Made by a program: the position numbers and the translations under genes
In this document: piece by piece, positions 4,496-40,460 of the stretch
How positions within the stretch are numbered: position 1 is the stretch's first letter
How the letters are laid out: every line of letters starts with the position of its first letter
Sequence record: MG049919
Length of the DNA stretch: 50,552 nucleotides
Direction: 5' to 3' (one strand)
DNA from: Shigella phage vB_SflS-ISF001
Notes under the pieces: model-generated
The model's input: the letters and a program-made list of their open reading frames with translations, nothing else
The model's database searches: none
Told to the model about the DNA's origin: nothing

Positions 4496-4734
4496 GTGAT
4501 TATCTCAGAAGAAAGTTCTTCTACGTCTTTTCGGATGATTAATCGCCAATTCTCAATGTATTCATTCCTTATCTCTTCGAAAGACATATCAAGAGAAGTA
4601 GTGAACTCCCACAGATCGCAACCAGTAACATCCTTAGTCAATCCATTTCGCACCTTAATCTCGCAGCACGTAGCTCGATAAAGTAGCCATAAACCTTGCT
4701 CAGTTAATATAACAGGAACCCTTTTTTCGCTCAT
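4486..4734 (-). CDS. hypothetical protein (82 aa)
   Basis: ORF track; ATG 7 nt after stop of methylase gene (operon coupling). Confidence 0.45.
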   Translation of the reverse strand: MSEKRVPVILTEQGLWLLYRATCCEIKVRNGLTKDVTGCDLWEFTTSLDMSFEEIRNEYIENWRLIIRKDVEELSSEIITQL

Positions 4735-4741
4735 AAATTTT

Positions 4742-5506: not shown

Positions 5507-5526
5507 GTTTTAACAAAAAGTGCTAT
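5507..5526 (-). promoter_or_regulatory. 20-mer motif copy upstream of Dam methylase gene
   Basis: Minus-strand ATAGCACTTTTTGTTAAAAC; CATTAT 22 bp downstream. Confidence 0.55.
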
Positions 5527-5939
5527 TTCGTTAAATCGTATATTGCCAGCTTGAATTGCTCAAATCCGTATGCAACGGCAGAGAATCCACCGCGATCCCG
5601 AACCTTTTTGAGAAACTCCCTTTGCTTATCGCTGACTGGTGACGCCTTTCCCTTGCCGGACTTATTAACCCGTTTGAGTTCGATAGCTGCGAACGGGTAA
5701 CGTGAGTTTACACCAATCAGGATAACGAAATCTGACACACCTTTAAGTAATCCAGCCTGCTCATCCCTGAGTGCTGAAGTGATTGTTTTTTCACCTTCAT
5801 TTACAGTGTGCCAAAATAGAAGGTGTGGGAAGTTGTATTTCAGCCAGGAAACGCAATCTACCTGATGAGCGTCCTCCTTTCTCGTGTCGCTAGGATCTCT
5901 CTCGTAAAATTCTAAATAATCACCTTTGTCTGTAATCAT
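5523..5939 (-). CDS. VRR-NUC domain nuclease (PD-(D/E)xK)
   Basis: GVSDFVILIG...AAIELKRVNKSGKGKASPVSDKQREFL matches VRR-NUC D/E-x-K core; start placed at ATG overlapping helicase stop (ATGA); track ORF extends to 6083. Confidence 0.7.
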   Translation of the reverse strand: MITDKGDYLEFYERDPSDTRKEDAHQVDCVSWLKYNFPHLLFWHTVNEGEKTITSALRDEQAGLLKGVSDFVILIGVNSRYPFAAIELKRVNKSGKGKASPVSDKQREFLKKVRDRGGFSAVAYGFEQFKLAIYDLTK

Positions 5940-9579: not shown

Positions 9580-9597
9580 ACTTAAGGAGTTTATACT

Positions 9598-11382
9598 ATG
9601 GCTTTATATAGACGCGGCAATGGATCAATGGATGCAGACGGCACGGTTCACGGAACCGATACAAAATCGATAGATCTACTTGCTCTGATTCGAGTCGGTG
9701 CAACTATCGTATTCCTGGAGCAACCAATTAAGCTGGCGGTGATTAGCGATATCGTTAGCGACACAGAGTTAAAGGCTATCTCTACGGATGGTCAGACTGC
9801 CGCTGACGGTAAGTATGTGAACCAGCCTAACGATTCGTTGACTGGTAACGGATTAGCTCTAAACGATGCTGTGAAGCTTCGATACTATCAAAGCAAAGAG
9901 ACTGAGATCGCGGCAGCTAAAGATCTGATAAATCAGCTTGATATGAATAAACTTGAGCAAATAGTTGCTGATGTGAATCAGGCGAAATCTGATTCTCAAG
10001 CTGCGCAAAATCAGGCTGAATTAGCGCGTGACGCAGCCAACGCTGCACGCGATGAAACTAACTCAATCAAGAATCAGACGCAACAGATTGTTGACGGTGC
10101 TGTCGGTAGCATCAATGCGGCTAAGGATCAGGCTATAACCGATGTGCTGCCAATAGTAACTTCATCCATCACTCACATTGACTCAGAAGAAGCGGAGGTG
10201 AATCGGGGAATTAATGACGCAAAAGGCGATCTGTCAGGTTACGTTAATGACGCTCAGACGGCAGCACAAACGGCGACCTCTGCAAAAAACGACGCTCAGG
10301 CAGCGCGTGACGATGCGGTAAGCTCAAAAGATGCGGCTGCGGTAAGTGCTCAAGAAGCAAAAGACGCAGCTAACAGCATCAATGCTGAAAATCTTTTAAC
10401 TAAGGATGGCAATCTAGCTGGTCTTGAGGATAAAAAAGAGTCAAGAAAAAATATTGGGTTAGGTGAAAATGATGCTGTTAACTTTCTTACTATTAACACC
10501 ACTGGCGCTATAGGTGCAGGAAGGAATTCATGGGACGGTTCTAGCTGGGGTAGTCAGTCCATATTGTCATCATTGATGATTATGTCACCTGATGGAATAT
10601 CTACGCCAGGTATTTACGTCAGAAAAGAACGTAGCGATAATGGTTATGCTGGGACTTTATTATTTTATGAAGGGGCAAACTACTTCGAGACTAACAATAG
10701 ATTTAGAGCCAATCAGTTTTTATGCCAGAAAACATCTATGGGTTACAACCAGATGTGGTCTGCTTCATGCTTCCAGGGTAATTCTTACACCGCCGATAGT
10801 GGCGCTGAAAACTATCAATCACTTGTTGCTGGATCGTGTGATATAAGGGGGCAAGGGTATGTTGGCGGCGTAGCATTTGGCATGATGACTACGGGTAATG
10901 CTGAATGGCCCAGAGCACAAATATCAGTAGGCACTCAAGATAGGGATGTAGCAGGCAATATTGGTCTGCAAATGCATTTCAGGTTTATGGCTTCAGGGCA
11001 AATATCTTACGCTGGACCGCAAGGGGCTGGAAGTTTCCAACAGGTTCCGGCATCTGACAAAATTAAAACGCTCAGCATAAAGGATGATGAATTAAACACC
11101 GGATTCATCAACATAAAGTCAATGAGATTTAGGAACTTTATATTTAACGACGATGAGCAAGAAAGGGTAAGGCGAGGTGTTATAGCTCAGGAGATAGAAG
11201 AGATCGACAATCTATATGTTAAGAGAAAGGTGTATGTGAGCCACGAGCAAATCGCGCGAAAAGATGCAAGACTTGAGCTTGATACAACTCCTTTATTGCT
11301 TGACACTATGAGAGCTTTACAGGATACAATAAAGATAGTTGAAGAGTTACAAGAAGAGATAAAAATGTTGAAGTCCAAATGA
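9598..11382 (+). CDS. tail fibre protein with C-terminal intramolecular chaperone (S74-like) domain
   Basis: Long Ala/Gln-rich coiled-coil repeats, then C-terminal RFRNFIFNDDEQERVRRGVIAQEIEE block typical of autoproteolytic chaperone domains of tail fibres; AAGGAG RBS. Confidence 0.7.
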   Translation: MALYRRGNGSMDADGTVHGTDTKSIDLLALIRVGATIVFLEQPIKLAVISDIVSDTELKAISTDGQTAADGKYVNQPNDSLTGNGLALNDAVKLRYYQSKETEIAAAKDLINQLDMNKLEQIVADVNQAKSDSQAAQNQAELARDAANAARDETNSIKNQTQQIVDGAVGSINAAKDQAITDVLPIVTSSITHIDSEEAEVNRGINDAKGDLSGYVNDAQTAAQTATSAKNDAQAARDDAVSSKDAAAVSAQEAKDAANSINAENLLTKDGNLAGLEDKKESRKNIGLGENDAVNFLTINTTGAIGAGRNSWDGSSWGSQSILSSLMIMSPDGISTPGIYVRKERSDNGYAGTLLFYEGANYFETNNRFRANQFLCQKTSMGYNQMWSASCFQGNSYTADSGAENYQSLVAGSCDIRGQGYVGGVAFGMMTTGNAEWPRAQISVGTQDRDVAGNIGLQMHFRFMASGQISYAGPQGAGSFQQVPASDKIKTLSIKDDELNTGFINIKSMRFRNFIFNDDEQERVRRGVIAQEIEEIDNLYVKRKVYVSHEQIARKDARLELDTTPLLLDTMRALQDTIKIVEELQEEIKMLKSK

Positions 11383-15467: not shown

Positions 15468-18400
15468 CTAAACCGAGTTAATAGTTCCGATAAATCCAAA
15501 CGATTCGTTATCCGCATACAGAGCACCCGTTACGGTAGCATTCATGAAGTACGCAGCACCATTCTTGTTAATATGCAACCCTTGATTTCCATCCCAATTG
15601 TTAGACTGAATACCGTTACCAATCTTTGCGTTAGTAATAAATCCATCCTTGATGATCGCGCTACTTAGAATAGCCTGACCATTCTCAACAACGAATGGAT
15701 ACTGAGTCTGACCGTTCATGGCTGTGATCATCGCAAATCGAGATGCCTCAAAAAGAATCTGAGCCTTAACACCCCCAGCTGAACCAATCAGAGACATAGC
15801 CATACCTGCGCTGTATTCCTGACCATTATACTTAAGGCCCAGCTTGACGCCGTACATTGCACCAGTCGAATCGGCGTTACTCCACGAGTCAAGTTTTTGA
15901 GAAAGTGCTGCCTCGTTATTCCCAAGTCGCGCGCTTAACGTTAAGTCAGCTTGCGTTCTCGCCACAGTCTCGTTCGCGATGGCTTCACGGATATCGGTCA
16001 AACTTGCCTGATTATCATCACCAATCTCTGCCTTGAGTTGGTCAATCTCACGAGATAGCTCCCCTGTCTCAGTTGCGATAACTTCACGCAATTCACTATT
16101 GCTTGCGTAAATCTGATCGCCAAAACTTGCTTTCAATTGCTCGATCGCCGTCACTCTTGCCTGCGTCTCATCAGCAATAAGTTTCAGTGATTTCGTGTAC
16201 TCAGGCTTTCGTTTTCCGTTCTCCTTCTTCATATAGATCGCGTCTTTGTCATGAGCTAACGCGTTCTCAATTGACGCTTCCGCGTTCGCTGCGTTCTGCG
16301 ACGCGTTGCCTGTTGCGTTATCAACAAGCCACTTGTAGCCAGGCGAGATTTCTATATCGACAGAAATCTCTCCGATGATATCGTCAACGTTTGTTAATGC
16401 CATACCTCTGACAAAATCAGTCCACTGAGACACATTACCGATCGTGTCAACCGTCCTTACCCGATACCACACAATATTCCCGCCCGGCATCTGTGAATGA
16501 TAATACTCATGCTGCGGATACGGGATCAGAGAGAGTAAACTCGCATTGTCAACCGTTCCATCCGGTGACTGTTGCAACTCTGTATAGGCCGTATCTCCAG
16601 AACCATCAGAGAACCCCCATTTTGTACGGATACCAAAAACAACATCATCAGTAGCCGTAAGGTTAATCGGTCTGCCCGGCTCACCTTGTTTGCCAGTCAG
16701 CGTCGCAGCTACGATATTTGACCATCCTGAAGTCGTACCGGAACCAGCTACGGAGCGAACGCGAACCTGATAGTTGCCAGCGTAAATACCCTCAACGTAA
16801 ACCTCTTTGTTTGCTGTCTGCGGAACGTTTTGCCAGTTGCCGTTATCCTTTCTCCACTGTACGTCATAGAAAACTGCGTACGGCACTTTATCCCAGCTAA
16901 CAATCATCGTTTCTACGCTCATCCCCTGGACGATTCTCGACTCTGAGGACACTTGCACGTTTTCCGGTCTAGGGATCTGATCTGGTTCAACGATGCTCGT
17001 CGGTCGGTCGTCGATGTTAACTCCGTAATCAATCTCGTCGTACTTGTTAGGATCGTACTCCACCGCCGTGATTTTGTAGGTAAATTCCTCGTCATCATCG
17101 CCCTTATCGATTTTTGTCACGACGTACTGTTGTAGCGCAATGTCGGTGCGGTCGATAGCGAATACCGTGTTAGGCTTCACAGGAAAGCCAAAGCCAATGT
17201 TAACCTCTATAGTCTTACCATCCGCACTAACACTTGAGATTGTGCGCTTCACGGGCTTGCCGTCGGGCTTATTTACGATAATAAAGTCACCTGCGCGCGC
17301 ATCCACACGGAACGGCAAGAAAATCTGGCTTCCAGACACTTCAAGCAAGCGCCCTGATAGGTTCATAGTCAAGTTGCTTGACCAGAAGTTGTCGGCTATT
17401 GCCACAACATCACCTATTGTCGGGATCATACCTTCAAGCCCGGTAGCGAAGTTTACCGTAGTGCTGCGGAGGTTAGTTTTCAGAATCCATCTCCCGCGTC
17501 GGTTTGCCTCACTTCGACGTGTGCAGCCGATCGCTGTAATGCTCGTTACGTTGTTCCCGAACCGTAGAGTAGCCTCACGATCGAATACTGGCTCAACGTC
17601 CTGCTGATACATGTTTTGCTCGTCATCAAACATCACATTACACGTCGTGTACATACTCTTTTCGCTTGCGAACGTGTAGGAGAAGTCACCATTAACAACG
17701 TTGTCGTTAGTGAAGATGTACGCAGGTTCACGCGGCCTGTCGATGATTACCGAAATGCTTTCGCCATTCCAAAAGCTCATACCTCGAAAGATTGAGCAAA
17801 TATCTCGAATAACCTTGTAAGCGTCAGTCTGAGACTGGATTATCACGTCGCAAAGGTATCGAGGCTCCGTCCCTCCCTTCCCATCAGGAACCATCTGATC
17901 GCAATATTGCGCGGCCTCGTAGAGCGCCCATTTATCGACGGAGATCCCAAGCTCCTTCTGATCCAGTCCGTAGCGCTGATTAATCATCAGGTCGTATAGA
18001 ACCCATGCCGGGTTGTTAGTCCAAGCCTTCTTGAAAGTCCCATCCCAATTTCCGTTGTAGGTTCGAGACTCAGGGTCGTAATTAGATGGAACGTTAATAA
18101 TCTTCCAGCGCTTACGAATTGAGATCGTAGGCAGCTGGTTTGGGAACATTTTCGAATCAAACTCGACAAAAAGAAGACCAGTCAGAGGATAACGGAATTT
18201 GGCATCAATCACCTCGGCATAGCTTTTCACCTGAATTGCATCAACGACATTCGAGTCACTTGAGTCAGGAGTCTTTCGAACAACTCTGAATATTACCTGG
18301 TTGTTGAAGTTCGGCAGGTTTACGCGACGGCTTCGATCATAACCCGACATTGTTTTGCCTTCGATTACATCAGTAAGAACAGTCTCAAACGAACCGCCAT

Positions 18401-18851
18401 CAACCGCTTGCTGCACCTCGTACTCAACGCGAACGCCGTTTTTATCGCCGTTACTTTCAATTCGTACGCCGCGAGGCATGAACATTTTGATACGGATTGC
18501 CGACAGCGTTTTGTTGGTTACTGAGATCGTGTATGGGTTATCGGTAGTAACCTCACGATTTACAGTTACCTCGCTGGAGCTATCTTCCATGCCCTTGATG
18601 TATTCCTGCGTCTGAGTTCCCGACCTGTACCCACCCCTTCCCTCGGCGAAGATGTACCATGCAACCTCGTTTTGCACCAAAACTGAGTTAAACATCAACT
18701 GCTTTAGGCTGAATGTTTCGTCAATTTCACCATCAGATACAGCTAACAGGTTTATGTTTATGATGTTTAAGTTATGTATCCCAACCATCTCAACTGGGTT
18801 ATGAGGCTTCTGTGACCCACCCTTAGATGAATTTATCACTTTTTGAATCAT
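15468..18851 (-). CDS. central tail fibre / host specificity protein (lambda J-like)
   Basis: 1127 aa, last gene of the M-L-K-I-J module; size and position as in lambda gpJ. Confidence 0.8.
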   Translation of the reverse strand: MIQKVINSSKGGSQKPHNPVEMVGIHNLNIININLLAVSDGEIDETFSLKQLMFNSVLVQNEVAWYIFAEGRGGYRSGTQTQEYIKGMEDSSSEVTVNREVTTDNPYTISVTNKTLSAIRIKMFMPRGVRIESNGDKNGVRVEYEVQQAVDGGSFETVLTDVIEGKTMSGYDRSRRVNLPNFNNQVIFRVVRKTPDSSDSNVVDAIQVKSYAEVIDAKFRYPLTGLLFVEFDSKMFPNQLPTISIRKRWKIINVPSNYDPESRTYNGNWDGTFKKAWTNNPAWVLYDLMINQRYGLDQKELGISVDKWALYEAAQYCDQMVPDGKGGTEPRYLCDVIIQSQTDAYKVIRDICSIFRGMSFWNGESISVIIDRPREPAYIFTNDNVVNGDFSYTFASEKSMYTTCNVMFDDEQNMYQQDVEPVFDREATLRFGNNVTSITAIGCTRRSEANRRGRWILKTNLRSTTVNFATGLEGMIPTIGDVVAIADNFWSSNLTMNLSGRLLEVSGSQIFLPFRVDARAGDFIIVNKPDGKPVKRTISSVSADGKTIEVNIGFGFPVKPNTVFAIDRTDIALQQYVVTKIDKGDDDEEFTYKITAVEYDPNKYDEIDYGVNIDDRPTSIVEPDQIPRPENVQVSSESRIVQGMSVETMIVSWDKVPYAVFYDVQWRKDNGNWQNVPQTANKEVYVEGIYAGNYQVRVRSVAGSGTTSGWSNIVAATLTGKQGEPGRPINLTATDDVVFGIRTKWGFSDGSGDTAYTELQQSPDGTVDNASLLSLIPYPQHEYYHSQMPGGNIVWYRVRTVDTIGNVSQWTDFVRGMALTNVDDIIGEISVDIEISPGYKWLVDNATGNASQNAANAEASIENALAHDKDAIYMKKENGKRKPEYTKSLKLIADETQARVTAIEQLKASFGDQIYASNSELREVIATETGELSREIDQLKAEIGDDNQASLTDIREAIANETVARTQADLTLSARLGNNEAALSQKLDSWSNADSTGAMYGVKLGLKYNGQEYSAGMAMSLIGSAGGVKAQILFEASRFAMITAMNGQTQYPFVVENGQAILSSAIIKDGFITNAKIGNGIQSNNWDGNQGLHINKNGAAYFMNATVTGALYADNESFGFIGTINSV

Positions 18852-19528: not shown

Positions 19529-20259
19529 AATTTAAGATCCTTATGGCGAACAATTAAAACAGTATGATCCTGATACCAGCCGGAATAGATATCACGTCGC
19601 GAAAGTTTGCCAAAGGCGTGATGCAAGATCTGATTATCACCCAGGTAAATGCCTGCGTGGTTCCATACCGGAACATTTTGCCCTATCTGCATGATTACCA
19701 TATCCCCGGATGATGGGTTATTCTGATCTGGAATCTCAACGAATCCATCTTGCTTGTAATAATCCTGATAGAGATTAATTCCGTACTCCGGTTTCCACCA
19801 TTCAAAATTCAATCGGCGATCGCGTAACTCTACGCCGTGCTCTTTGTGCCACGCCATAACAAGACCGTAACAGTCGAATGATCCTAATGACCACGGACGA
19901 CCAATCAGAGGTAATTTCTCTGGCTTCACAAATCGCATATCCCCTTCAGGCACGCTAACAATGATCCAGGTAACTTCCATCTCGTTGCACATGCACGTAT
20001 CGTGAGCGCTTGGTAGAGTTGTAGCCCCGTCTCCTGTATGACTATGAACAATTGCGATCGTAGTTGATTCCGCATCGTCCTCAATGCAAGCGTATTGTAC
20101 AGCATCCATCATGAAATGATTCTCGGGATCACGATGCACATTATCAATGCGATGGTATTTTTGCACTCGGCCCTTTTGGGTGACTACCCCGCAGCATTCG
20201 CGTGGGTATTCTTCTTGAGCGTGAGTCATAATTTCAAGTTTAATTTTTGCACTAATCAT
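19525..20259 (-). CDS. tail assembly protein (lambda K-like; MPN/JAB + NlpC/P60)
   Basis: JAMM-like HSHTGDGATTLPSAHD and C-terminal Cys/His peptidase-like region; start at ATG with AGAGGAAAAATCA RBS overlapping L stop (track ORF to 20292, TTG). Confidence 0.7.
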   Translation of the reverse strand: MISAKIKLEIMTHAQEEYPRECCGVVTQKGRVQKYHRIDNVHRDPENHFMMDAVQYACIEDDAESTTIAIVHSHTGDGATTLPSAHDTCMCNEMEVTWIIVSVPEGDMRFVKPEKLPLIGRPWSLGSFDCYGLVMAWHKEHGVELRDRRLNFEWWKPEYGINLYQDYYKQDGFVEIPDQNNPSSGDMVIMQIGQNVPVWNHAGIYLGDNQILHHAFGKLSRRDIYSGWYQDHTVLIVRHKDLKL

Positions 20260-21038
20260 TGATTTTTCCTCTGTAGTAAAGCGACAGCGCAACCACCAAA
20301 ATCCAATTCATTGTTTGCAGCGAATCTCAGGCGGCAGGCCGTTACCGTACCCGGGCAAAAGTCCAGTGAAGGATCAGCTACCGGATTATTGTCTTTATCA
20401 AAGTAACCGTTTTGCCCGTTATATACGGAGCCCTTCCCGGTTTTATACCATCCACGCTGCGCCCAATAGCATACGATTTGCGTGAGTCGAGACGGAATCA
20501 TGATGCCGTCCATATCGTAAGGTGATGTGAGATCGAACCGCGCAACGCTTTTATCAACATAGTTCGGACGCTCGATATAGTATACCAGTTTGCGGTAAGC
20601 TCCATCAGCGATTGAGCCATCGGAGTTAATAAGCTCACGCTGAGTTATCCAGATAGTCACCTTAGCTTGCATTAGACCGTTATATGCACGAATCAACGCA
20701 GATACGCGACTATCAATGTTTGCCACAGTTAATTCTGGTTTTGTTGCCTTGCCTGAACTGTCAAATGAGATCCCGGATATACCGGAAGGTCGCGCCCCGA
20801 ATTTCTCGCCACGGAATGTAATTTCCTTCAGCGGTAGCGTTCCAGTTTGCTGGGCCTGCATGATTTCTTCTGGAGTGTACTGGATATTCTCACCGTGGAA
20901 TCGGGACACCTGAGCGCCGAACTTACTACCATCAACTACGATGATAATGATTATCACTCCCGGATATAGTGATTGTAGGCAGTTGTGAAACAGGCTTCTT
21001 CCGCTTAATTGATCATTAAGTATTATGGTTGCGCTCAT
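20256..21038 (-). CDS. minor tail protein (lambda L-like)
   Basis: Position; C-terminal Cys cluster CPGTVTAC...GGC; start at internal ATG with AGAGGAAAAATCA RBS (track ORF to 21095). Confidence 0.65.
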   Translation of the reverse strand: MSATIILNDQLSGRSLFHNCLQSLYPGVIIIIIVVDGSKFGAQVSRFHGENIQYTPEEIMQAQQTGTLPLKEITFRGEKFGARPSGISGISFDSSGKATKPELTVANIDSRVSALIRAYNGLMQAKVTIWITQRELINSDGSIADGAYRKLVYYIERPNYVDKSVARFDLTSPYDMDGIMIPSRLTQIVCYWAQRGWYKTGKGSVYNGQNGYFDKDNNPVADPSLDFCPGTVTACRLRFAANNELDFGGCAVALLQRKNQ

Positions 21039-21473: not shown

Positions 21474-24347
21474 TTAGCCTACTGTTTTTTCCTGAATATA
21501 ATTATAAACCACACCGACCTGCGAACAAGACTCTCGAATCATTTTTTTGAACATCATTTCTACGCCCTGAGAAATTCCTATCGGATCTGAACCGTTGTCA
21601 ACTTTAACCTCCATACCCCTAACATCAACGACCGTCCCGCCTGCTGATTGGTTTACTGCCTTCGGCGCTGATTTAGAAGCGTTAAATCCAGAGGTTGCAA
21701 CACTACCCGCAGCGGCGGCAAGCGAGGTAACAACGACACCCGAAGATAAAGACCTAAAACCAGAGGCGGCAGGCGTAGGAGTTGCCTGTGATGCCGCAGA
21801 AGCACCAGGAGACACCCCTCCAGCAAAACTCCACGTCTTACCGCCCATCATGCCTGAGATCGTAATAAATATTACCATCTGAGCAATCATCTTGATAATC
21901 ATGCTAATGATGTTTTTCGCAAAGTCCTCAAAGTTTGCCTTACCTGTAGTGAGGAATTGGGTCATCATATCACTCATTCCATTAAGTGAACTTGACGCGA
22001 TATCATATACGTTACCATACATATCCATTGCAGAATCGCCGTAATCTGCAAATGCGCTTTCAGCACCAGCTAACCAGTCAGCGCGTTTGGCATCTTCCGC
22101 AGCGTAGTAATCATTTTGCGCCTTAATCATGTTCTGGAGTTTTTCGTCTCCCTCACTACCTCCAGAGTTGATGTAATCAGTGGTTATTTTAGCCAGTTCC
22201 GCTGGTCGTTCCATCGCGCGCGTGCTAAGACCGGGTGACGCGTTAAGCTGTTCTGTCGCCGCCGTCATCTCATTGACAAACTTCAGAGATTTATCGGTAA
22301 GAGCATTCAACTGTTGTTGCTTAACAATCTGATCGCCAATCTCGGCCTTCTGTTTTGCAAGCTCAATAACTCTCTCCTGACTTGCCAGCAACGCTTTCTC
22401 TTCCGCAGACAACTGACGCTTAGAACTGGCTTCACGAAGAACAGCAATCGTTGCCTCGGTCGTAAACAGCGCTTTTCTCTGTGCGGAAAGTTTTTGCCCG
22501 ATCTCCTTGTGCTCCTGCAATACCTTAAGTTGAGCCTTGAGTGAAATTAACTCCTTGTCGAATTGCTCTGTCGGTGAGCGTACAATTTTCGACTGCTTAT
22601 TTCGTTCTCGGTTTCGCTTCTCGATCTCTTCTGCTTCTTTCCTTATTGCTTCCTTAGTTTCCTCGCTGTACTGCTTTTCAAGAGTGCGACGCTGCCTCAT
22701 TGCTTCAATGTATCCCATCTCGCCTTTTTCTACTCGAGCGTTAATAGCGTCAAGCTCTGAAGCCAACTGGTCTAAGTTGTCGCGAGAACTTTTTACGATG
22801 TTCTCCTGCTCCTTCAGTACATCAGCGCCGAAATCACTCATTCCAGGCAGGGACTGAGTTGCCGTTATGGCTGAGGCGATAAAGTTTGAGATGTACTCAT
22901 CACCCTTCGCTAGAGTCATTTTGACCAGAATCACTGTACCCTGAACAAAGTCGATAATCAGGTTTAGCGCCCCGAGTGTATGATCACCAACCCATCCCCA
23001 CGCGTCCGAAGCCCATTGTTTAATATCGCTCCACATCTTTTCCAGAGGAGTAGCGTTATCCGCGATCGATTTCATTCGCTTTTCCATTACGTCTGCGAAT
23101 AGTTTGGTAGCCCCTGATACAGCCTCAGTTTCTCCTTTCGTCCGGCTTAATGTATCGATATAGGTAAGCTGCCCTCTTTCAAGGCAATTATATCGCTCGT
23201 TTAACCTCTTCAGACCTCTTACCGGATCGCTTGCGATTTTGTCGAACTCAGAAATAATTTGACTTGCTGACTTTCCTGTTGACGCTGACCACTCTGCGGT
23301 AGCCTTAGTGATGTTCTGGATCTGCTCGCGGGTGTACTTACCAGAACTTGCCAACTCCGTTACAATCTCGCGAATACTCCCAATGGTTGAGTTGCTTGTC
23401 TGAGCCACCTTTTTAGCAACAGAATCAAGCTCTTCAGCCGTGACTCCTGCATAACCTCCAGTCTCAACAAGAGCCTTCTGCATATCAGTTATTGACTTGT
23501 AAGAGTCATAACCAGCTTTCGCAAGAAGACCTAAAGAGCCGACAAGAACACCAACACCAACTGTGACCGGATTAATATAGCTGAGCAATACCTTAAATGT
23601 ATTCCCGATCCCGCCGAACGAGTCCTTGATTTGACCGCCTTGCTGGATGGCAACCATCCAAACTGGCATACCTGACGCAAGAGATGTAACGACGTCGGTA
23701 ATCTGCGCGGGAAGCATTCGCATTGCCTGCCTATATTGCCCAGCGCTAATACCTGCGGCATTCATAGCTCGACCCTGCTCTTTCAGTTTTGCGATCAGTG
23801 GCGCTGCTTCATTTGATAGTCCAAGCTGAGCCGCTTTCAGTTCCATTAACTCTGCGTGAGTTTTGCCAATAGCGTTAACCTGACTGTTCAGGGAATCCAT
23901 GAACGCTTTGTTTTTCGCTGCTGCCTGATCTTTTGCTTTCGCTTCCTGCAATGCTGCCTGACCCTCTTCAGTAAGCATGGCTCGGCTGCGAGCAAGTTTT
24001 GCATTTTGCATGTCCAGCATTTCACCCAAACGGAAAAATGTTTCATCTGGAACAACGCCCTTTCGCCAGAGTTTATCAAGCTGCTGAGATGCAATCTTCA
24101 GCCTTTCCATTTTTGATACTGTAGGATCGATTGCCTTTTCTACAGCCTCGTACTCTCTGCGCTGGCGCTTAAGTTGCTCAGCGTGTTCTTTAGCCTTCTG
24201 TTTTGCAACCTCGGCCTCATTGATTAAACACCCCATAGAGTCAGCGGCTTGGTCGTTAGCTCTTGAACACTCTTTCAATGATTTGACGGCGCGCTGCACT
24301 GTCGACACATCAACGTCAAGCGATAGACCTTCTCCTTTTTCATCCAT
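21474..24347 (-). CDS. tail tape measure protein
   Basis: 957 aa, coiled-coil-rich with hydrophobic Gly-rich segments; between G/T chaperone genes and M; AAGGGGG RBS. Confidence 0.85.
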
Positions 24348-24364
24348 ACAACCCCCTTATATAC

Positions 24365-24386
24365 AAAAAAACCGCCAGACGGCGGC
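24365..24386 (-). terminator. intrinsic terminator-like hairpin between T and tape measure gene
   Basis: Plus AAAAAAACCGCCAGACGGCGG = minus hairpin + U7. Confidence 0.5.
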
Positions 24387-24656
24387 TTAGATATTCTGCT
24401 TAGCAATCATTTCAAGCGCTTTCGCTTCCATGATCATAATGTCCTGCAATGCCAGTTCTACATCTTCTATTTTATAGATTTTAAACAACATAGGCAAAAC
24501 ATTATAGTCAAGAGCATAAGCGGCAGCGCCTGAACTTCTCCACTGAATGAGCATTGATGTAAAAACATTCCAACCCTTCACCATTTCAGCGTCGCCAATT
24601 ATCGTTTCAAATTCCTCGTCTTCATAGTCTGAAAGACTTGAACCAACCGATCGCAT
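24387..24656 (-). CDS. tail assembly chaperone T segment (candidate G-T frameshift product)
   Basis: ORF in -1 frame relative to G, open back through the 3' end of G; own ATG with GAGGAA RBS also present. Confidence 0.5.
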   Translation of the reverse strand: MRSVGSSLSDYEDEEFETIIGDAEMVKGWNVFTSMLIQWRSSGAAAYALDYNVLPMLFKIYKIEDVELALQDIMIMEAKALEMIAKQNI

Positions 24657-24703
24657 TTGTTCCTCTGTTGGCGGCTTCTGATATAACAGATAGACCGCCT
24701 TTT

Positions 24704-25021
24704 TTAGATTTTTGCGCGGTGTCCGGCAAGAGCCTTGATGTAAGTCGCTGTCAAGTTGTACGCTGCTGAAGGATAATACTGAACCAGTTTTAGCGCATTT
24801 TCTTCGTTAAATTCTTCTACAAGGTTCCATCCTGACGCGATCTTGGTATTGAACTCGCTGTCGTTCATTTCTCCCCGGTTGGCAGACATATCCTGAACTT
24901 CTTTACTGGAAAGGTGGCGTACAGTGAAAATGATCGTTGCATCTTCACCGTTAGGCTTGGCGAAGGTAACTGGAAGTTTGCAGTCTGGACGTTGACCAAG
25001 AATAAAATTAAATCTACCCAT
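24704..25021 (-). CDS. tail assembly chaperone (lambda G-like)
   Basis: 105 aa between major tail and tape measure genes; CAGGAG RBS; A-rich tract at 3' end. Confidence 0.65.
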   Translation of the reverse strand: MGRFNFILGQRPDCKLPVTFAKPNGEDATIIFTVRHLSSKEVQDMSANRGEMNDSEFNTKIASGWNLVEEFNEENALKLVQYYPSAAYNLTATYIKALAGHRAKI

Positions 25022-25102: not shown

Positions 25103-25123
25103 ATAAGGGGGCGCAAGCCCCCT
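25103..25123 (-). terminator. hairpin downstream of major tail gene (weak terminator/attenuator)
   Basis: GGGGGC-GCAA-GCCCCC; minus strand followed by TTATTCATTT. Confidence 0.4.
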
Positions 25124-25135
25124 TGTGGATATGAT

Positions 25136-25801
25136 TTAGGCACCAGGTCGTGCCAGAGCGGATGAAACGAAAGTGAAATCACCCTTCTGGGATACGGCGA
25201 GTTGTACCGTTTCCATTTCGTTTACTTGCGTAGATGGAATGTCGTTAAAAGACCAGATACCAGCCCACATGCGCATCTTGTTCGCTTTTGGAACATACAT
25301 CCGAACCGCAGTTACCTGACCAGAAGAATCCTGCTTACGCAGAATAGGGTAGATCGGGTTATCAAATTCGTGCGCGAATGTGTAAGTTAGCGAGATCCCA
25401 GATTTAAACGTTGGGATCTGCTTTTCTTTATCATCGGACAAGCACTGATAAGTATAATTCTGCTGCTCGCCGCGGTCCTGACCAATCTCCTGTACGCAAG
25501 GAATCTCAGTCCAGCCAGTAATCTTTGCAAAGCTCATCGTGCCGCCAGCCGGGAAAACAAGAGTATCAGAGGTGTCAATCCCAGCGAGAGTGATGCTTGT
25601 TTCCGGAGCGGCAGTAACAATCAGCCCTCGACTGACCATCTTGGCCCAGGTTGACTGAGTTACAATAACGTAAACGCCTTTTACTAAGTCGCCCTTAGAT
25701 GCAACTGTAGCAACAAGATTTCCTGCGTTAGTAATAGCGGTTGCCTCACTATCTTCTCCGCGAGAGGTTTCCACGAAAATTTGCGCGCCATTTGGTAAGA
25801 G
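25136..25801 (-). CDS. major tail protein (lambda V-like)
   Basis: Position upstream of G/T; start at ATG with AAGGAG RBS (track ORF to 25858); hairpin downstream. Confidence 0.65.
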   Translation of the reverse strand, partial: LLPNGAQIFVETSRGEDSEATAITNAGNLVATVASKGDLVKGVYVIVTQSTWAKMVSRGLIVTAAPETSITLAGIDTSDTLVFPAGGTMSFAKITGWTEIPCVQEIGQDRGEQQNYTYQCLSDDKEKQIPTFKSGISLTYTFAHEFDNPIYPILRKQDSSGQVTAVRMYVPKANKMRMWAGIWSFNDIPSTQVNEMETVQLAVSQKGDFTFVSSALARPGA

Positions 25802-25806
25802 CATAA

Positions 25807-26205
25807 TTAAATCTCCTTTGTGTCTACTCGTACTGTAAAGCGAACCGGAGTCATCCACTCGCTTTCATGTTTAACAATTTGATGCACGATTACACCCTCG
25901 GAAATATTACCAACGTTAAGCATTTTACCATCTTTGAAAAAATCAGCAATGTCTTTTGTTCTGAATCTTGCTTCGTCAACGCCGGATCCTGGAGGAAACA
26001 CTACTCCGATCCGAACGATTGCGATGGAAGATTTACACTTTCTGTCAATGGATAGATAACGCCTATCCTCTTCAATGTAGTTGAACCTCAGCAACATCCC
26101 GCCATCCTTCGGCGGTATGAAATTTCTGTTTTCCATGTAGTGAGGAAAGTCTCTGTACTTTGACTGAAAGGCGGATCGCGCCGCCGCTGATAACTCATAG
26201 TGCAT
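25807..26205 (-). CDS. tail completion / tail terminator-like protein
   Basis: 132 aa directly upstream of major tail gene; AAGGAGA RBS. Confidence 0.45.
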   Translation of the reverse strand: MHYELSAAARSAFQSKYRDFPHYMENRNFIPPKDGGMLLRFNYIEEDRRYLSIDRKCKSSIAIVRIGVVFPPGSGVDEARFRTKDIADFFKDGKMLNVGNISEGVIVHQIVKHESEWMTPVRFTVRVDTKEI

Positions 26206-39532: not shown

Positions 39533-40168
39533 CATGATGAACATCAGCGAAATCGAAGCGACCAGGAGAACAAGAGCGATAGCTAGGCCAGACAAGTCTG
39601 CTTTCTCTTCAAACTTCATTGCTGGCTTGCGGTCAACATTAATAGGCTTGACGTTGCTAATCTTGCTGGTGTTGATCTTGCCAATGACGCGGGAGGAGCG
39701 CTTGCGGTTCTTGCCGAACGTTGCGAACTTAGTGCCTGCACTGTTCCAACGAAGTCCTTCGCCATTATGCGTTACGGTACCGATGCGGTGACGGCCCGTG
39801 TCGTGAGTAAGCGCTACAGTGTGCTTTGCCTGCTCAGTAGGAACGTCGTAGTTTTTTCCAACACTAAATATTTTGGTGATATCGCTGATACATTCAAATT
39901 TCAAAAATTTTACCTCTTTATTATGCAGTTGTTTGATTGCTTCCATTACGTCTCTAAATATAACACCATCCACGATTCGATGGAAGATATATTTTGAACT
40001 ACCGCAATACGGCTGGAAAATTTCCTGGTTCTCGTGAGGACGGATGATGTTAACGTTGCTACCGTGCTCATCCACGACAACGAAGCTCTCGTCATTGACG
40101 TGAGCGCCTTCGTAGATTTTTCCCCACTTATAGCCCGATCCGTTACTTGATACGCATTCAAATTTCAT
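39530..40168 (-). CDS. tail-anchored membrane protein (212 aa)
   Basis: C-terminal TM LSGLAIALVLLVASISLMFIM; internal KFEC repeat; terminator downstream. Confidence 0.45.
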   Translation of the reverse strand: MKFECVSSNGSGYKWGKIYEGAHVNDESFVVVDEHGSNVNIIRPHENQEIFQPYCGSSKYIFHRIVDGVIFRDVMEAIKQLHNKEVKFLKFECISDITKIFSVGKNYDVPTEQAKHTVALTHDTGRHRIGTVTHNGEGLRWNSAGTKFATFGKNRKRSSRVIGKINTSKISNVKPINVDRKPAMKFEEKADLSGLAIALVLLVASISLMFIM

Positions 40169-40172
40169 TTTT

Positions 40173-40460
40173 CTATGGTCTAACCTTCCTATAAGGCATG
40201 ATTGATAACATCACGAATTGCGTGAAGTCGCATTCCTGATCGTCATTCCCGCGATTGATGTATGGAGTCTCGTCTGTAACATCGCATACCCTGGCGTGAA
40301 CTTCCCACCCGCTAAACTCACCCCGATGGAACTCTCGTAGCTGCAAGATATCGCCAATGTGGAAGTTGCGGTCATTGTTGCGGAACTCTGCCGTTATGGT
40401 TCCCTTCTTTACTCCAATGAAAGGTACCGGGTTAATTTTTAACTTATGACTCTTGCTCAT
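40173..40460 (-). CDS. ASCH/PUA-like domain protein (95 aa)
   Basis: GVKKGTITAEFR...GDILQLRE resembles ASCH-type fold signature; promoter cassette upstream. Confidence 0.4.
   Translation of the reverse strand: MSKSHKLKINPVPFIGVKKGTITAEFRNNDRNFHIGDILQLREFHRGEFSGWEVHARVCDVTDETPYINRGNDDQECDFTQFVMLSIMPYRKVRP

Follow-up and report, generated by a model that had tools for sequence, protein, structure and literature searches.

The best described system of this kind is the G/GT gene pair of phage lambda, where a programmed -1 ribosomal frameshift (Levin et al. 1993; Xu, Hendrix and Duda 2004, 2013, summarised in PMC5009743) yields a short G protein and a rarer G-T fusion, only about one GT per 30 G being required (PMC5009743). 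The two lambda ORFs lie between the major tail and tape measure genes, the second, read in the -1 frame, shares sequence with the 3' end of the first, and the shift occurs within the last few codons of G at the slippery sequence G_GGA_AAG with the involvement of tRNA-Lys. A case closer to the present one is annotated in Skenny (MK931444), a T1-like Klebsiella phage whose record carries a joined CDS, 'tail assembly chaperone frameshift product', described as an analogue of lambda G/GT (PMC6763657). Bacterial -1 sites can also be A-rich, as in A_AAA_AAC of IS1, A_AAA_AAG of dnaX and A_AAG tetramers (PMC4066793, PMC5009743). Tetramers of the form Z_ZZN are the minimal -1 shift motif (PMC5009743), and in E. 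coli tRNA-Lys shifts very readily (PMC5009743, PMC4066793). For T1 itself, Tunavirus, Webervirus and the phage analysed here, we found no experimental proof of frameshifting in the literature.

The DNA analysed here, referred to as the window, is the whole 50,552-nucleotide sequence of Shigella phage vB_SflS-ISF001 (MG049919), a T1-like phage (Drexlerviridae, Tunavirus) that is collinear with Shigella phage ISF002 at approximately 97% identity. A G-like gene for a tail assembly chaperone, 105 codons long, occupies positions 24704-25021 of the minus strand and defines the 0 frame; it is preceded by an AGGAG Shine-Dalgarno sequence. Its product matches Pfam family Phage_TAC_4 (PF08748) over residues 1-104 with E = 6.8e-28 and 97.8 bits, above the gathering threshold of 21.1 bits, and it matches phrog_569 as well as positions 1-107 of phrog_17368. 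The T-like ORF at 24387-24656, also on the minus strand, encodes 89 amino acids that match DUF1799 (PF08809) over residues 8-84 with 33.8 bits (gathering threshold 26 bits), and it matches phrog_680 and positions 128-212 of phrog_17368. It begins 365 nt past the start of G, which places it in the -1 frame, and would form the C-terminal part of a predicted 211-residue GT fusion. Directly upstream on the same strand is the major tail protein gene (25136-25804; gp28 of ISF002 lies at 25156-25824, a 20-nt offset), and directly downstream, again on the minus strand, is a 957-residue tape measure protein gene (21474-24347), taken from the ORF list and the annotation of the collinear ISF002 and T1 records. 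The order is therefore major tail gene, Phage_TAC_4 ORF, -1 DUF1799 ORF and tape measure gene, and the annotations of both ISF002 and T1 are collinear with it.

An earlier reading of this DNA, made from the sequence alone, had proposed that the downstream ORF lies in the -1 frame relative to G, that this frame stays open for at least 75 nt back through the 3' end of G, and that the arrangement mirrors lambda G/GT upstream of the tape measure gene. The ORF coordinates agree with the first proposal; the -1 frame is in fact free of stop codons for 100 nt upstream of the G stop; and the gene order, together with the Pfam and PHROG matches, agrees with the third. Like lambda, the window has two ORFs between the major tail and tape measure genes with the second overlapping the first in the -1 frame, a putative shift site in the last few codons of G that would involve tRNA-Lys, and a predicted output of a short G and a rarer G-T fusion. 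The protein families, in contrast, are Phage_TAC_4 and DUF1799, lambda having gpG and gpT families of its own. Taken together with the comparisons below, we consider it very probable that the T1-family equivalent of the lambda G/GT cassette, with its programmed -1 frameshift, is located here.

The C-terminus of the G-like ORF, ...AGHRAKI*, is encoded by GCA AAA ATC TAA. The putative shift site, A_AAA_AUC (24707-24713, minus strand), occupies the position of the A_AAA_AAC heptamer in natural relatives and is followed immediately on its 3' side by the 0-frame stop codon UAA of G (24704-24706, minus strand); this abutting stop is unlike the arrangement in lambda. Codons 103-105 read GCA AAA AUC, the Z_ZZN core A_AAA at 24710-24713 is in the correct register, and a slip within the run of five A residues at 24709-24713 would read ...AK-NLKKAVYLL.... 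The sequence-only reading had named the same A5 tract and the same junction, and it had remarked that the site is not a textbook X-XXY-YYZ heptamer. Both statements stand: the canonical tandem-slip heptamer X_XXY_YYZ is not present in the window, which has A_AAA_AUC where ISF002 has A_AAA_AAC, and the AAC to ATC change is private to the window.

Considered in isolation, these features are attributable to chance alone. Across the window, AAAAATC was counted 18 times (16 expected) and AAAAAAC 17 times (14.5 expected), and overlaps that stay free of stops for 33 codons are not uncommon. It is conservation across relatives that exceeds chance. A second A_AAA, at 24788-24791 (CTA AAA CTG), was tried as a shift site and rejected because it lies outside the overlap shared by relatives, which can be as short as 7-28 nt.

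We examined 94 loci, comprising IMG/VR loci L004-L138 and GenBank records L003 and L047-L058. In all 94, the -1 frame overlaps the end of G, and this overlap starts between -169 and -7. In the Dhillonvirus 101114BS4, the open stretch of the -1 frame starts precisely with the heptamer (cgU GAA AAA AAC UAA); therefore, the stretch common to all overlaps is the 7-nt site alone. About 62 of the 94 loci carry A_AAA_AAC, including T1, ISF002, HK639, eiAU, a Dhillonvirus and a Serratia phage, in the last of which the stop comes three codons later; most relatives have the stop immediately next to the site. The Webervirus loci (23/94) carry A_AAA_GUY, five Rtp-like phages carry A_AAG_GUC, and two phages, Sabo and Mingus, carry A_AAG. 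The form A_AAA_AUC was seen once, in this window only. Compared with the slippery sequence of lambda, G_GGA_AAG, the T1-like relatives thus have A_AAA_AAC and the window has a degraded version of it.

Every one of these site types retains a Lys codon preceded by A, and A_AAR is invariant in the 70 unique natural sequences (70/70). The third base of the codon before Lys is likewise A in 70/70, although the residue encoded there varies among A, V, T and E, and four-fold sites nearby are close to random (1.3-2.0 bits of entropy). Since the third base is always A despite the varying amino acid, selection acts on the nucleotide motif A_AAR and not on the protein. This register also bears on whether the fusion frame could be reached by transcriptional slippage, in which RNA polymerase would add an A within the A-run to give an mRNA with G and T in frame. 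Most relatives have six or seven A residues, and one extra A would create the same fusion frame. Productive slippage by bacterial polymerase, however, requires longer homopolymers, and the run is only A5 in the window, A4 in Weberviruses (GCAAAAG) and A3 in Rtp-like phages (GCAAAGG), which is too short. The conserved feature is the A_AAR register and not the run length, and all of the sites fit a tRNA-Lys slip. We regard transcriptional slippage as highly improbable as the mechanism of this family.

If ribosomes shift at this site, the codons between it and the T ORF should be conserved as protein. These -1-frame linker codons, NLKKAVYLLYQKPPTEEQ (24657-24710, minus strand), could be translated only by ribosomes that have shifted, since no start codon of the -1 frame precedes them. 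Starting at the slip site, the linker peptide (K/R)AVYL.YQKPPT(E/D) remains conserved even where the G proteins of relatives share no more than 45-55% identity. The -1 frame matches phrog_17368 over positions 107-212, and inclusion of the 22 codons that precede the ATG of T raises the score from 100.6 to 131 bits. Similarly, a tblastn search with the T frame and these 22 codons gave at least 80% query coverage in 1047 phage records, with coverage that begins at query residue 1-4 and persists to about 30% identity.

Fused G-T proteins form a PHROG of their own (17368, 213 positions). When the two frames of the window were joined conceptually after Lys104, residues 1-210 aligned to positions 1-212/213 of this PHROG in a single stretch, with E = 5.4e-71 and 239.7 bits. 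A search of a large protein database with the fusion returned one match only, a 123-residue DUF1799 protein; NCBIfam gave no match, and a PDB sequence search gave spurious proteasome matches only. Skenny has orthologous genes (Drexlerviridae), the same slip position (…AGHRAK|) and the same -1 linker (…RAVYL…) as the window. The earlier proposal of a -1 frameshift at the A-run fusing G and T is thus supported by the overlap in 94/94 loci, the invariance of A_AAR in 70/70 sequences, the phrog_17368 match and the Skenny annotation. The feature is already known, because an orthologous frameshift is annotated in a T1-like phage and the fused proteins are captured by a PHROG.

The T ORF of the window could also be translated on its own. 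The sequence GAGGAA (24660-24665) lies 3 nt before an ATG at 24656, with a 5-nt gap after the GAGG core, and together they form a possible start for T (24654-24665, minus strand). The sequence-only reading had noted both elements and had allowed for independent translation; both are indeed present, but the ATG is private to the window. In relatives, this position is occupied by TTG, TTA or CTG, all Leu codons, with TTG in the closest relatives. In T1, ADB-2, Shfl1 and most other genera, the Leu codon is incapable of starting translation and there is no in-frame start until +122, inside DUF1799, which is why the T1 record has only a truncated T ORF of 55 amino acids.

A more general form of this explanation holds that G and T are translated separately, with T read from the ATG at 24656 by means of GAGGAA, and that the overlap of frames is incidental. 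The well-placed GAGGAA, 3 nt upstream of an ATG, would suit it, as would the annotation of two CDSs in ISF002 (the second with a TTG start) and in many other records. The absence of a start before +122 in T1, ADB-2, Shfl1 and most genera argues the other way, as do the conservation of the 16 codons before the ATG, which ranks with the highest in the -1 frame, the universal overlap with the slippery site as its conserved core, and the existence of a PHROG made up of the fused proteins. In other words, no translation start is conserved for the downstream domain in the relatives, and protein-level conservation extends to the codons that precede any start. T might be made separately from the window's own sequence, but this is not the conserved mechanism, because the ATG at 24656 is unique to the window and T1, ADB-2, Shfl1 and most other genera have no start there. 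As an account of the locus, separate translation with an incidental overlap is improbable, and we continue with the frameshift cassette as the preferred reading.

One candidate stimulatory element was found in the window. A predicted RNA hairpin, GGCGGU...GCCGCC with an inner helix of the CUGU/ACAG type (24670-24699, minus strand), starts 7 nt past the shift site. The predicted fold has a minimum free energy of -15.5 kcal/mol (z = -3.1), a stability that 0 of 200 shuffled sequences equalled. A hairpin at the same position was predicted in T1 (z = -4.3), in the loci L073 and LF82-10, in eiAU and in a Dhillonvirus; that of LF82-10 has a different sequence, with a compensatory change from G:C to A:U. 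In Webervirus, the Rtp-like phages and the locus L110, the same-position hairpin was absent, although several such clades should likewise need the shift, and RNAalifold with 59 unique sequences gave no family-wide consensus structure. Covariation in a hand-proposed stem was modest, with 72% of cells paired compared to 66% in shuffles and no more than 55% when the stem was slid. The hairpin is therefore best described as a plausible, lineage-specific candidate stimulator, as suggested by these folding models. On the upstream side, reading of the 20 nt before the site (GCCGGACACCGCGC) revealed no convincing Shine-Dalgarno-like stimulator of the dnaX type, and the corresponding region in other clades offers only AGGG. 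The T1-like phages resemble sites of the IS1/dnaX type in their use of a shift-prone tRNA-Lys, in the occurrence of heptamer and tetramer forms and in a 3' hairpin at typical spacing; they differ from dnaX in that an upstream Shine-Dalgarno-like stimulator is not evident in the window, and from both in context, the bacterial products being a transposase and the DNA polymerase gamma subunit.

The two bases that set the window apart at this locus are worth considering together. Over 95 nt around the site, the window and ISF002 show exactly two differences, AAC to ATC in the heptamer and TTG to ATG at the start of T. They correspond to the private changes A>T at 24708 (Asn105Ile) and T>A at 24656 (Leu1Met). 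A megablast search with 43 nt centred on the changed base of the ATC variant gave no match in 50,697 phage records (INPHARED), and an exact 17-mer scan of IMG/VR gave seven matches, none of which encodes a G/T homologue. Since the ATC variant is found neither in INPHARED nor at homologous IMG/VR loci, it is private to the window.

A comparison of the window with ISF002 across the genome places both changes in an unusual setting. There are 1469 substitutions, and they affect 3.3% of annotated CDS bases but only 0.13% of intergenic bases. Codon position 2 takes 995 of the 1461 coding differences (68%); in a 46-gene subset, there are 816 nonsynonymous and 55 synonymous codon changes. As a natural baseline, G of ISF002 differs from G of T1 by 38 synonymous and 4 nonsynonymous codon changes. 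The dominant substitutions are complement-type transversions (A<->T and G<->C). All ATG starts (74/74) and stop codons (76/76) are untouched, the two TTG starts of the ISF002 annotation have both become ATG, two genes are free of changes, and eight-nucleotide insertions part start and stop codons that overlap in ISF002. G itself carries 13 substitutions, of which F14C, Y46S and I58N fall at positions otherwise at least 90% conserved.

A pattern of this kind is not a product of natural divergence and, on the evidence of the substitutions, looks non-natural. We infer that the sequence was derived from ISF002, or from a near-identical phage, by an alteration that was aware of the annotation and acted at the protein level. 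Asn105Ile and Leu1Met would then be by-products of that alteration and not evolved features. Given the non-natural pattern across the genome, function in the exact sequence of the window may never have been selected.

In the proposed mechanism, most ribosomes on the chaperone gene would stop at UAA and release the 105-residue G protein. A minority would slip back one base at the A-run of the shift site (24707-24713), read through the linker codons into the DUF1799 T domain as far as 24387 and produce the 211-residue GT. By analogy with lambda, the G part of the fusion would bind the tape measure protein, whose gene is the next one downstream, and the T part would recruit the major tail protein, the product of the adjacent upstream gene. 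Most natural relatives would shift on the tandem-slip heptamer A_AAA_AAC followed by a stop, with the hairpin 7 nt downstream in the T1 clade. In the window, the A>T change (Asn105Ile) leaves only the Z_ZZN core A_AAA, so the shift would have to come from a single slipping tRNA, tRNA-Lys; were both tRNAs to move back on AUC, tRNA-Ile would be paired with AAU and mismatched at the middle base. The predicted junction, ...AK-N-LKK..., is the same as that of the natural tandem-slip product because the next -1 codon is AAU (Asn).

The loss of the heptamer raises the question of how much GT the window could make. In E. coli reporters, tetramers without a stimulator were barely above background (PMC4066793). 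With a strong pseudoknot, the range for six tetramers was 0.26%-5.6%, with A_AA.A at the bottom (PMC4066793). These published data suggest that shifting in the window is probably weak, with an efficiency well below that of the natural site in its relatives.

Taken further, the same observations would allow that the cassette is present but effectively dead, with the A>T change abolishing the shift, GT made at background level only and T function supplied from the ATG at 24656. The broken heptamer is consistent with this, as is the fact that the change was unseen in the 94 relatives, INPHARED and IMG/VR. Low activity of A_AA.A among active tetramers, even with a strong stimulator, points in the same direction, and the change belongs to a set of 13 in G, several of them at near-invariant positions, within a non-natural pattern that spans the genome. 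Weberviruses, however, both the 23 sampled here and those in hundreds of Klebsiella phage records, use A_AAA_GUY, which lacks the tandem-slip heptamer. Their natural use of this site indicates that an A_AAA core can serve T1-like phages. In addition, the downstream hairpin and its 7-nt spacer are intact in the window, and the ratio needed by lambda, about one GT per 30 G, is low. On balance, we think it unlikely, though worth taking seriously, that the cassette of the window is effectively dead; the preferred reading remains a frameshift cassette, probably one that works weakly in this sequence.

Comparison of the T1-like phages suggests a series of sites. T1, ISF002 and HK639 combine a heptamer with a hairpin, Webervirus has a bare A_AAA_GUY tetramer without a detectable hairpin, and the Rtp-like phages, Sabo and Mingus have A_AAG. 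The contrast is clearest between the natural parent clade of the window, with A_AAA_AAC UAA and a hairpin, and Skenny and other Weberviruses, with A_AAA_GUU UAA and no detectable downstream hairpin. We offer the functional reading of this series tentatively. If it were true, A_AAA_AUC of the window would still yield enough GT, and the T1-like family would provide a ready system for study of the minimal -1 frameshift signal in vivo. Nothing here is fundamentally new as biology, and the modest interest lies in the variation between heptamer and tetramer across the family.

The results also bear on existing records. Those of ISF002, T1 and most T1-like phages show a pair of unconnected ORFs, labelled 'hypothetical' or 'tape measure', where they should carry a G CDS and a joined GT CDS that shifts at A_AAA_AAC. 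Users of the window should be aware that its coding regions contain unnatural substitutions and that peculiarities of one base, the altered heptamer and the ATG of T among them, are not to be read as evolved features.

Two further elements were observed at the borders of the locus. A terminator-like hairpin with a T-run lies just past the T ORF (24369-24388, minus strand) and a second lies after the major tail gene (25105-25124, minus strand); T1 has an annotated rho-independent terminator at each of these places, and the two hairpins bracket the G-T unit.

The window and its closest relative, ISF002 (NC_041995), are separated over the whole window by 1469 substitutions, and these are distributed very unevenly. 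Coding sequence had changed at 3.3% of its bases compared to 0.13% of intergenic bases, and codon position 2 held 68% of the coding differences. Across 46 genes, nonsynonymous codon changes outnumbered synonymous ones by 816 to 55, and the most frequent types of change were the transversions A<->T and G<->C. All ATG starts (74/74) and all stop codons (76/76) were unchanged, both TTG starts (2/2) had become ATG, and the two window genes that correspond to ISF002 5514-5930 and 19545-20279 carried no changes at all. Judged from the sequence comparison, this substitution pattern is not of the kind that natural evolution yields, and the window looks like a natural genome that was altered at the protein level with knowledge of its annotation.

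Insertions and deletions relative to ISF002 were also seen. Two 8-nt insertions were found, at 4734-4741 and at 40167-40174; the first falls exactly where an annotated start and an annotated stop overlap in ISF002 and parts the two (CATCA in ISF002, CAT-aaatttt-TCA in the window). Two genes of the window for tail fibre or tail tip proteins have gained premature stops relative to ISF002. One is the central tail protein gene (15468-18851, minus strand), whose product has 1127 aa compared to 1149 aa in ISF002; the other corresponds to ISF002 gp14 (9589-11382) and has its stop at codon 489. Small compensating indels relative to ISF002 are present near window positions 18775 and 11069.

Natural relatives also differ at the shift site itself. 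The A_AAA_AAC heptamer is replaced by A_AAA_GUY, A_AAG_GUC or A_AAG in the Webervirus loci (L049, L058 and L118-L138), the Rtp-like loci (L096 and L100-L105) and loci L053 and L054, and the downstream hairpin of the T1 clade was absent from both reduced-site sequences that were folded, one from a Webervirus (L118) and one Rtp-like (L096). At a further locus, L079 (IMGVR_UViG_2974632794_000001, approximately 1005-1015), the site reads GTAAAAAC, with five A, rather than GTAAAAAAC, which moves the reading of G to the +1 frame and places a stop in the frame of T. The variant most probably reflects a sequencing error in the homopolymer of the slippery run.

The window's 100-nt -1 overlap contains a second in-register A_AAA, at 24788-24791 on the minus strand (CTA AAA CTG, Lys78 of G). 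In relatives, the shortest -1 overlaps (7-28 nt) do not reach this far upstream, and the conserved C-terminus of G would be replaced if ribosomes shifted here. This second A_AAA is probably a chance occurrence.

The G-T unit is flanked on both sides by terminator-like hairpins with T-runs, one 3' of the major tail gene (25105-25124, minus strand) and the other 3' of T (24369-24388, minus strand), and rho-independent terminators are annotated correspondingly in the T1 record. This correspondence suggests that transcription may be attenuated stepwise, from the major tail gene to G/GT and then to the tape measure gene.

When the 211-aa fusion was searched against a large protein collection, a single match was returned, a 123-aa DUF1799 protein, whereas relatives are encoded in more than 1000 phage genomes; the word-index prefilter of the protein search seems to have overlooked this family. 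In the public databases, the entries for T1, for ISF002 and for most relatives lack an annotation of the frameshift. The second ORF is annotated in truncated form in T1 (NC_005833 19339-19506, 55 aa) and with a TTG start in ISF002 (NC_041995 24407-24676). In RefSeq, each of the two small ORFs is labelled 'tail length tape measure protein'.
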